Shown: piece by piece, positions 26,895-28,749 of the stretch
Layout: every line of letters starts with the position of its first letter
Numbering within the stretch: the first letter of the stretch is position 1
DNA from: a virus
Lineage: Duplodnaviria; Caudoviricetes
IMG/VR virus record: IMGVR_UViG_3300018430_000021
Location: 128,001 to 192,000 of that record
Length of the DNA: 64,000 nt
Direction: 5' to 3' (one strand)
Notes under the pieces: generated by a model
Told to the model about the DNA's origin: nothing
What the model saw: the letters and a program-made list of their open reading frames with translations, nothing else
The model's database searches: none
Translations under genes and position numbers: made by a program

Positions 26895-26923
26895 AAATAA
26901 GGGTCCCAGAGGCCCTTATTTTT
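26895..26923 (+). terminator. Intrinsic terminator
   Basis: aaataaggg-tcccagagg-cccttatttttg. Confidence 0.75.
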
Positions 26924-26970
26924 GCAATTATTCAGACATAAATAAGATATAAGCTATGAAGGAGTAAACT

Positions 26971-27930
26971 ATGTTCCAAGGAACCGACACACTTAGAGGC
27001 CATAATGAAAATGTGGAAATGACCCAGGAGCAGTGGGCGGAATACGAGAAGTGTTCAAAAGATATTTTCCATTTTGCTAATTACTTTTATATTTTGACAG
27101 AAGACGGTGAATTGCCGATTAAGTTGAGAGAATATCAAGAACGTCTCATCAAGGTAATTTGCGGAACTTATTTCATGCGTAACGATGACGGAACCATAAT
27201 GACGGATTCCAAGGGTGAAAAAGTTTTAAGAAATAACAGAATTATTACCGTGGGTCGTCAGGCTGGTAAGACTACTATCGCGACGCTTTATATTTTGTGG
27301 TATGCGCTTTTCCATAAGGACAAGACTATTGCTGTTCTGGCTAACAAGGAATCACAAGCTATTGAAATTATGCTTCGTATTCGTGCAGCAGTTCTGAGAC
27401 TTCCTATGTGGTTACAGCAGGGTATCAATCCGGACCGCGGTGGCTGGTCTCAGAAATCAATAGGATTTGATAACGGTTGCAAAATTTTCTGTGCTGCTAG
27501 TTCGTCTTCTGCTATTCGTGGTAAATCCGTTGACTTGATGCTCGTGGACGAATTTGCTCACTTGCCGGAACAGGATGCTGACGATTTTATGATGTCGGTT
27601 ATTCCGACACAGGCTTCTCGTAAGACAAGTATGTTGATTCTTATTTCAACGCCTAAGGGTATGAACCAGTTCTATAAGATTTGGCAGAGTGCTCTTGCTG
27701 GTATCAATACCTTTGTTCCTGCAAAGATTGCATGGAATGAAATCGACGGTCGTGATGAAACATTCAGGAAGAAAGTTATTCGTGACCATGGTATTAAGTT
27801 CTTTAACCAGGAATATGCTTGCTTGGATCCGAATGAAGAAATTACTGTCCAGGACGAGGCCACAGGTATTGTTTTAACTGACAAAATTGGCAAAATTTTC
27901 GAATTATGGCAAGACGGTTTCCTTAAATAA
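26971..27930 (+). CDS. gp17: Terminase large subunit, N-terminal ATPase half, fused to a split-intein N-fragment
   Basis: LREYQ adenine-binding motif, GRQAGKTT Walker A, IRGKSVDLMLVDEFAH Walker B, ISTPKGMNQFY motif C; ends FNQEYA|CLDPNEEITV...* with no nuclease domain. Confidence 0.92.
   Translation: MFQGTDTLRGHNENVEMTQEQWAEYEKCSKDIFHFANYFYILTEDGELPIKLREYQERLIKVICGTYFMRNDDGTIMTDSKGEKVLRNNRIITVGRQAGKTTIATLYILWYALFHKDKTIAVLANKESQAIEIMLRIRAAVLRLPMWLQQGINPDRGGWSQKSIGFDNGCKIFCAASSSSAIRGKSVDLMLVDEFAHLPEQDADDFMMSVIPTQASRKTSMLILISTPKGMNQFYKIWQSALAGINTFVPAKIAWNEIDGRDETFRKKVIRDHGIKFFNQEYACLDPNEEITVQDEATGIVLTDKIGKIFELWQDGFLK
27820..27927 (+). mobile_element. Atypically short split-intein N-fragment (IntN, 36 aa)
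   Basis: CLDPNEEITV (block A-like, Cys1)...KIGKIFE, then stop, at the QE(F/Y)x|C terminase intein site. Confidence 0.85.
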
Positions 27931-27960
27931 TACTATAAATATATTAAGGAAAATTGCTAG

Positions 27961-28749
27961 ATGGTTTTTGGAGATTACTGTAATAAGATTAAGAATATTT
28001 TAGCTAGAACTCATCGCGATGTGAGTATTGTTGACTATAACATGGAACAGATTTTCGAAGCATATATTAACGATACTCCCGCCTCCAAGGTCATTGAAAA
28101 ACTATATAAATCTATGAATGAAGCTACAGCTGATACAGACTTTTTAAAATATAAGAATCGAGTACATACGATTCTTGAAAAACTGGGATATGATAAATCC
28201 GAACTTGATAACAAGAAGGTAACTGATACTATTTCTGATTTGTACGATACAAATGAAGATGAATACGCATGTGCCGAAATTTGTAAGGACGAAATCGACA
28301 AGGCACAAGAACTTAAACCAATTAAATTGACTTCTCGTCAAGTACAACATGTCCGCAATAACCTGATTATTGCATTACATCCGGTCAGCAACGCTGCTTT
28401 ACTAGATTTAAATGTTTCTCCTCAAGGAGCAGTGGTTAAAATCAAGGTTAGACTGACCCAGGGATTGCAGGAACTACATACCGACGCCAAGTCATATATT
28501 AAGGAAGTCCATAAGTATCTTCGTGCATTTTTGCTTCAGAATTCAAATACGGACGTAGATTTTAAAGTAAAGAGTTATTCAATTAAATTTAATAATTTGT
28601 ATTGTACATCAGAATTTTTTATACCTTTTAAGGACGCTAATGGAATACCGATACAACTGTTTAATGTGTATGATATTGCCAGAATAATTAAATCGCACTT
28701 GAATGTGTTAGAAACTTTTAGTGAACAATATAGGAATATAATTAAATAA
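27961..28749 (+). CDS. Hypothetical late protein with duplicated N-terminal helical module
   Basis: Own promoter 27934-27941; FGDYCNKIKNIL / FLKYKNRVHTIL repeat; no intein or terminase-nuclease motifs. Confidence 0.65.
   Translation: MVFGDYCNKIKNILARTHRDVSIVDYNMEQIFEAYINDTPASKVIEKLYKSMNEATADTDFLKYKNRVHTILEKLGYDKSELDNKKVTDTISDLYDTNEDEYACAEICKDEIDKAQELKPIKLTSRQVQHVRNNLIIALHPVSNAALLDLNVSPQGAVVKIKVRLTQGLQELHTDAKSYIKEVHKYLRAFLLQNSNTDVDFKVKSYSIKFNNLYCTSEFFIPFKDANGIPIQLFNVYDIARIIKSHLNVLETFSEQYRNIIK

Follow-up and report, generated by a model that had tools for sequence, protein, structure and literature searches.

Introduction

How does a tailed phage package its genome when the gene for its packaging motor ends before the nuclease domain? 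This question is raised by a 64,000-nucleotide stretch of viral DNA (positions 128,001 to 192,000 of the 291,102-bp IMG/VR record IMGVR_UViG_3300018430_000021, designated G000:C1:128001-192000; hereafter, the window), in which the open reading frame (ORF) at 26971-27930 (+), equivalent to C1:154971-155930 (+), encodes a 319-amino-acid (aa) ATPase of the terminase large subunit (TerL). An initial annotation, made from the letters of the window, proposed that this ORF ends in the N-terminal fragment of a split intein (IntN) and that the packaging motor is assembled by protein trans-splicing from two genes, the second of which would carry the C-terminal intein fragment (IntC) and the nuclease. 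We find that partner gene elsewhere in the record, and its uniqueness, its homology and its conserved catalytic residues support the proposal: the TerL of this huge T4-like phage is very probably made from two unlinked genes, whose products, referred to below as the N-half and the C-half, would be joined by protein trans-splicing.

The N-terminal half of the terminase

As the initial annotation had described, the N-half contains the ATPase motifs of TerL and stops short of the nuclease: residues 92-284 match the Pfam family Terminase_6N at 2e-17, and the Pfam search found no nuclease domain in it. Its Walker A (GRQAGKTT, residues 95-102), Walker B (LVDEF, 191-195), ISTPKG (225) and YQ motifs are invariant across the 24 homologues of alignment A2. 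The best PHROG match is phrog_5989, terminase large subunit (2.4e-46), and because the N-half fills this 347-position family to its end, the match suggests that terminases consisting of an N-half only already form a family among known phages. The chain ends in ...FFNQEYA, followed by CLDPNEEITVQDEATGIVLTDKIGKIFELWQDGFLK and TAA, a tail and stop read in the same way by the annotation. In an AlphaFold2 (AF2) model of the N-half, with a mean predicted local distance difference test score (pLDDT) of 88, the IntN forms a beta-hairpin and a helix; its net charge is -5. The description of this 36-aa IntN as ultra-short or new does not stand, since its length falls within published sizes (25 aa in AceL, 30 in Cat, 37 in GOS and 15 in PolB16 OarG).

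The C-terminal half lies outside the window

A Terminase_6C search of the whole 291-kb record returned a single match, a 350-aa ORF at G000:C1:95375-96427 (-), on the strand opposite to that of the N-half, 59 kb upstream of it and 31.6 kb ahead of the first position of the window. The annotation had recognized no IntC-nuclease ORF inside the window and had supposed the halves to be physically dispersed, and both statements agree with this position. It had also described what such a partner should look like (an IntC of 100-130 aa with a TxxH motif and an HN end, then Cys or Ser and a gp17 nuclease), and the ORF answers to that description, with a 101-aa IntC, the motif CSIDH, the ending NGLINHN, Cys+1 and Terminase_6C; the concern that the genome might hold no IntC-nuclease ORF is thereby removed.

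The C-half begins MKILCGNEFK...LKCSIDHKL...TPNGLINHN, continues with CSFIGSSQTLIDPN and then enters the nuclease domain, where residues 148-299 match Terminase_6C at 1.3e-09. A profile of C-halves matches the gp17 terminases of RB49 (3.9e-51) and T4 (1.6e-49), and Foldseek matches the C-half model to T4 gp17 at 1.6e-18. The AlphaFold model (pLDDT 83), computed separately from that of the IntN-bearing half, consists of an all-beta N-terminal domain and a gp17-like nuclease whose acidic residues D151, E209 and D293/D294 are invariant in the alignments. Between them the two genes hold the entire catalytic set of a splicing intein: Cys1, S35-x-x-H38, H100-N101 and Cys+1. Residues 1-30 of the IntC have a net charge of +3. 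With an IntC-only profile, the whole record yielded no second IntC or other intein.

The record contains a second Terminase_6N match (C1:258676-259242), which we rejected as an alternative partner, as it lacks both IntN and nuclease and has dead Walker A and B motifs. It belongs to a degenerate 263-aa paralogue of the TerL ATPase at G000:C1:258460-259251 (+), or L006:1285-2076, with 40% identity to N-half residues 28-283, in which Ile stands in place of the Walker A Lys (RQCGITT) and DD in place of the Walker B DE (IIDDF). The paralogue ends ...FFNSEFSGKFKEE, that is, at the extein/intein boundary, and has no Cys1, IntN or nuclease. It is also kept in a complete related genome, G001 (300753-301511), and looks like a duplicate of the N-half made after the splitting.

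Predicted splicing and its product

Splicing in silico joins 283 aa of the N-half to 249 aa of the C-half and gives a 532-aa, 60.6-kDa TerL. A283 is joined to C102 (Cys+1) in FNQEYA-CSFIGSSQTLID with no gap and no overlap, so that the junction reads ...FFNQEYA-CSFIGSSQTLI... and the predicted junction peptide is FFNQEYACSFIGSSQTLIDPNVLSDLMQK. The spliced TerL is colinear with unsplit homologues (for example, FKQEILVEFLGSANTVI and YNQEVLCKFLGSSLTLI), which read FKQEILVEFLGSANTVID, FDQEFGNTFFGTGDTLIE and YNQEVLCKFLGSSLTLIN at the junction, and with T4 gp17, which reads HTAAFEGTSGTLISG from residue 352 (aligned as QEHTAAFEGTSGTLISG). From the known gp17 structure, we take the intein site to lie a few residues before the hinge between ATPase and nuclease. 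Because the ATPase motifs and the nuclease acidic residues are invariant, the predicted spliced protein would be a complete enzyme.

We envisage that gene 1 supplies the ATPase domain (283 aa) with the 36-aa acidic IntN, and gene 2 the 101-aa IntC with the nuclease domain (249 aa). The short IntN would dock on a partly folded IntC, whose 30 N-terminal residues are basic, and so complete the HINT fold; this pairing of an acidic IntN with a basic IntC start fits the electrostatic capture described for split inteins. Splicing would then follow the class-1 pathway, in which Cys1 forms a thioester, Cys+1 attacks it, Asn101 cyclises and an S-to-N shift restores a peptide bond, yielding the 532-aa TerL with its junction just before the ATPase-nuclease hinge. 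Both the docking mechanism and the splicing itself are steps that we infer from the two genes and their modelled products.

Relationship to known inteins

A family profile built from 26 C-halves (A3) was compared with the sequences in the PDB. It matches CatC (PDB 6dsl_B, 'Consensus engineered intein CatC') at E 6.7e-17, profile positions 2-103 aligning with residues 18-115 of the chain, from the first IntC residue through Cys+1 and with the same split point; the likeness to split TerL inteins of the AceL/GOS type, which the annotation had pointed out, extends over the whole IntC. Further matches of the profile are gp41-1 (4.7e-10), Spl DnaX (6.1e-07), VidaL (3.1e-05) and DnaE inteins (7qil, 8.8e-05). 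The predicted fold of C-half residues 1-101 likewise matches the solved inteins VidaL, gp41-1, RecA, DnaX and Cat, with 6dsl_B found by Foldseek at a template modelling (TM) score of 0.67 on the target and 26% identity. Searched against the PDB as a single sequence, the IntC alone gives a marginal match to CatC (E 0.39).

When IntN and IntC are placed end to end, they are colinear with the contiguous inteins that two metagenomic proteins, P0255 and P0264, carry at this TerL site; the two fragments of the split intein in Serratia phage 92A1 can be aligned with them as well. The chain is broken in the loop that follows the I..L(Y/F) helix; 92A1 is split in this loop too, and comparison with the contiguous inteins puts the break there as well. 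The insertion site is common to cultured-phage and IMG/VR relatives.

Constraint on the two halves

Homologues of both halves are abundant. In a database of 5.8 billion proteins, IntC-nuclease halves (344-400 aa) make up more than 100 clusters and ATPase-IntN halves (about 297-319 aa) more than 120, many of which come from contigs of 170-680 kb. The inteins have diverged further than the exteins they accompany: mean pairwise identity is 68% for the N-extein and 32% for the IntN, and 48% for the C-extein and 35% for the IntC. Within this divergence, Cys1 is kept in 24/24 N-halves, and all 26 C-halves keep the block-B His (His38), a Ser or Thr three residues before it, the terminal Asn (Asn101) and Cys+1, with a penultimate His in 22 of the 26. 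A drifting intein with fixed catalytic residues is the pattern to be expected of an active splicing element, and not of a docking module or a decaying gene.

Gene layout across relatives

In the related record G001 (415,750 bp, with direct terminal repeats and rated complete), a single C-half is located at about 45.2-46.3 kb (-) and a single N-half at 104.9-105.8 kb (+), 58.6 kb apart, and no other nuclease domain was found in this complete genome. In a further record, G003, the halves are 45 kb apart. Among cultured phages, Serratia phage 92A1 and Yersinia phage MHG19 (Straboviridae) share this atypically split intein and its site in TerL; because their sole nuclease domain lies within this split intein gene, the split design is compatible with plaque-forming phages, which lends the presumed trans-splicing indirect support.

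Layouts compared over 80 IMG/VR loci range from contiguous to widely separated. The most distant relatives have a contiguous TerL without intein. In intermediate relatives (33-40% identity to the C-half), and in the cultured phages with a 236-aa ORF between, the halves lie on the same strand 0.2-1.4 kb apart. Two loci (L019, in record G005, and L020) have adjacent, divergent halves with 108 bp between the start codons. No N-half is present within 3 kb in 15 of the closest relatives, and in the long contigs G000, G001 and G003 the halves lie 45-59 kb apart on opposite strands. Divergent neighbours are a plausible intermediate between the adjacent and the unlinked layouts. The divergent pair L019/L087 is found in record G005 at about 58.8-60.9 kb.

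A quick tree built on the nuclease domain unites the unlinked and divergent loci, this genome among them, in a single group of 23 rows (support of 91 in the Shimodaira-Hasegawa-like approximate likelihood ratio test); a few more unlinked cases occur elsewhere in the tree, whose deeper branches are weakly supported. Because a gp26-like gene downstream of the C-half is kept in all these layouts and the neighbours of the N-half vary, we conclude that the N-half is what moved.

Splitting of terminases is not limited to this site. Three distant TerL relatives begin with an IntC at other positions, two of them split at Walker A (...SHN|TTVTS... and ...SHN|STSVA...) and one just before Walker B (...SHN|CIFLDEFAF); because these proteins (P0097, P0105 and P0100) start in this way, terminases have been fractured at several points. 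In Vibrio phage VP-1 (Ackermannviridae; L003, MH363700.1 74807-78149), a 739-aa 'terminase large subunit' precedes a separate 'terminase like family protein' of 345 aa, and the latter matches the IntC-nuclease half; the TerL of VP-1 is probably another fractured one, with an unusually long N-part. Two-intein proteins (P0245, P0255 and P0259) also occur.

Expression signals

Both halves sit in a common cassette, composed of a preceding terminator hairpin, a T4-late-type box (T/C)ATAAATA, a spacer of about 25 nt, a ribosome-binding site (RBS) and ...gtaaactATG (Table 1). For the C-half, an exact TATAAATA lies 25 nt before the ATG, at about G000:C1:96453-96460 (-), immediately behind the hairpin that terminates a regA-like gene. 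Within the window, TATAAATA occurs 31 times against 9.7 expected, a three-fold enrichment, and often stands directly after terminator hairpins, which fits T4-type late promoters in insulated single-gene cassettes. From these signals, both halves are presumably late genes that would be co-expressed.

Table 1. Features of the two terminase genes and their expression signals (window positions unless prefixed)
Feature	Position	Strand	Basis
Terminator-like hairpin aagggtcccagaggccctt + attttt, closing the gp21-like prohead protease gene	26899..26924	+	sequence
CATAAATA, presumed T4-type late-promoter box with one mismatch, 26 nt 5' of the start codon	26937..26944	+	sequence
RBS AAGGAG of the N-half	26959..26964	+	sequence
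N-extein, TerL ATPase domain, 283 aa, ending ...FFNQEYA	26971..27819	+	Terminase_6N, phrog_5989, invariant motifs
IntN, 36 aa: Cys1, block A CLDPNEEITV, block N2 IGKIFEL	27820..27927	+	alignment, AF2
TAA stop of the N-half	27928..27930	+	sequence
TATAAATA, late-promoter box of the next, unrelated gene, 3 nt past the N-half stop	27934..27941	+	sequence
IntC, 101 aa, MKILCGNEFK...CSIDH...NGLINHN	G000:C1:96125-96427 = L001:2095-2397	-	IntC profile match, E 1.3e-35
C-extein, 249 aa + stop, Cys+1-SFIGSSQTLI... and nuclease domain	G000:C1:95375-96124	-	Terminase_6C

Alternative explanations

Several observations weigh against assembly of TerL by active trans-splicing from two co-expressed genes. Thr82 of the IntC (VITPVEV; L001:2152-2154) aligns with the F-block Asp of CatC (LYDLLNV), and this position is Thr in 18/26 and Ser in 2/26 of the C-halves in A3, including the whole unlinked clade, whereas relatives with adjacent halves have Asp. 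The block-F residue usually helps to coordinate splicing, and its change may mean that the chemistry is differently tuned or slower. Pfam intein models barely detect the IntC (PT-HINT at E 0.049 on the C-half), and PF14890 has no match in the whole genome; these models are too insensitive here, and it is the family profile and the fold that identify the IntC as an intein. With the record about 70% complete, we rely on the complete relative G001 for the statement that there is no second intact TerL. The box of the N-half, CATAAATA, carries one mismatch, so equal timing and dosage of the halves remain presumptive, and that splicing takes place in this phage is what we infer from its genes.

The change in block F throughout the unlinked clade, from Asp to Thr or Ser, would suit a non-covalent two-subunit terminase in which the intein fragments have turned into a non-splicing dimerisation module. 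The ATPase and nuclease of T4 gp17 are separate domains with a hinge near the split site, and a working genes-in-pieces enzyme that does without splicing is documented in the NrdA of phage Aeh1, split by a homing endonuclease gene (cited in PMC10448857). We nevertheless consider such a terminase improbable. Cys1, the block-B His, the terminal Asn and Cys+1, which only splicing requires, have stayed fixed while the intein around them has drifted to 32-35% identity, a docking module alone would have no need of them, and the closest characterised relatives splice (PMC11766414). That the truncation might instead be an artefact or a sign of decay, whether from misassembly, from a frameshift or because the phage is defective and its terminase broken, is suggested by the nature of the record, a metagenomic assembly classed as linear and about 70% complete. 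This account is scarcely credible, as the N-half and C-half clusters counted above come from independent samples and share the same ends, which excludes the frameshift or assembly error that the annotation had thought might restore a contiguous gene. The layout recurs in G001, the complete and terminally repeated genome of 416 kb, both halves come with a promoter box, an RBS, a start and a stop of their own, and no frameshift could repair halves that lie 59 kb apart on opposite strands.

If TerL is indeed assembled by trans-splicing, the scattering of its halves might itself have been selected for in this huge-phage lineage as a means of controlling the timing or amount of motor assembly, or of exposing less full-length TerL to host sensors and so hiding it from terminase-sensing defences, with the dead ATPase paralogue as a regulator or decoy and the block-F Asp-to-Thr change as further parts of the control. 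The unlinked layout is retained throughout the 23-sequence tree group, the distance between the halves is nearly equal in G000 and G001, and the degenerate paralogue, ending exactly at the intein site, is kept in both; moreover, Avs3 is known to bind phage terminase (PDB 8dgc, in the fold-search list). Nothing in our tests, however, favours regulation. Both halves have the same kind of late promoter, TerL after splicing is still full-length, and neutral rearrangement of an already split gene is a simpler account, so that we regard a selected function of the unlinking as unlikely.

Comparison with known split inteins

The intein type itself is already known from the terminase inteins AceL-TerL (25/104 aa, Cys1/Cys+1), GOS-TerL (37/115, Ser1/Cys+1) and Cat-TerL (30/104), which splice in trans (PMC11766414). 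GOS-TerL was first noted by Dassa et al. (2009; PMC2677866), in whose paper a split intein of a terminase is described as 'fractured at an unusual point' and its C-part as 122 residues long. The intein described here shares with these three a gp17-type terminase host, a break after blocks A and N2, a short IntN and an IntC of more than 100 aa with blocks B, F and G, and it shares with AceL and Cat the nucleophiles Cys1/Cys+1. It differs from them in its low identity, in the Thr in place of the F-block Asp, in its unlinked genes, and in belonging to a huge phage lineage, whereas the others come from marine or Antarctic-lake metagenomes.

Phage 92A1 has the same intein type at the same TerL site (...FKQEH|CIARDSKVHVKD... 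and ...NGILTHN|CAEFHGTSGTLISG), and its gene likewise exists only in two pieces. In 92A1 and MHG19, and in the fractured-gene loci of Dassa et al., the halves are neighbours on one strand, separated by a small ORF or a gap of 0.2-1.4 kb; the arrangement that marks a fractured-gene locus (adjacent halves on one strand with a free-standing endonuclease between them) is not the one seen in this genome. The present TerL, an essential enzyme with two genes far apart whose products trans-splicing would reunite, resembles the split DnaE of cyanobacteria (Ssp/Npu), the classical unlinked, naturally split intein on a bacterial chromosome. Split DnaE, in contrast, is broken at the canonical endonuclease-insertion site, with an IntN of about 100-123 aa and an IntC of about 36 aa, and its host is a different protein and not a phage. 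VidaL (UvsX; PDB 6VGV), which is also a profile and fold match, and PolB16 OarG resemble the present intein in their phage-type host genes and atypical early split; they differ in host protein, insertion site and a shorter IntN, and PolB16 OarG, which has a 15-aa IntN and comes from a sheep gut metagenome (PMC10189870), uses Ser1/Ser+1.

Against this background, the unlinked gene layout in a phage seems unreported, our literature search for unlinked terminase halves in phage having found no paper. In a large and widespread phage lineage, an essential virion-assembly enzyme exists only as two scattered genes, and if our reading is true, protein trans-splicing would for this reason be an obligatory step in the phage life cycle. 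The series of layouts, from unsplit through adjacent halves and divergent neighbours to halves 45-59 kb apart, documents a route from a fractured gene to unlinked pieces. Terminase-based phage detection, completeness estimates and phylogenies would mis-call such genomes if one TerL gene is expected. The family is also a source of natural variants, more than 100 of them, of a split intein with a short IntN and Cys1/Cys+1, a kind of intein in demand for protein semisynthesis and labelling.

Neighbouring genes

A search of the neighbours against Pfam and PHROG found no endonuclease-like gene beside either half. Upstream of the N-half, the ORF at 26192-26875 matches Peptidase_S77 at 3.4e-33. The C-half is flanked by a gene for a RegA-like translational repressor (L001:2459-2872 (-); Translat_reg, 2.2e-22) and by the gp26-like baseplate gene, which has a zinc-ribbon (L001:437-1345 (-); T4_baseplate, 7.3e-08). 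Downstream of the N-half, the initial annotation had placed a promoter 3 nt past the stop, ahead of a gene that it took to be neither a homing endonuclease nor an IntC. The box is where it had been placed, and the ORF that follows at 27961-28749 (+), of 262 aa and with this TATAAATA as its own, has no Pfam or PHROG match; we therefore rejected it as a candidate for either, none being recognisable. In G001, a weak relative of the 262-aa ORF (23% identity) is encoded close to the N-half but on the other strand.

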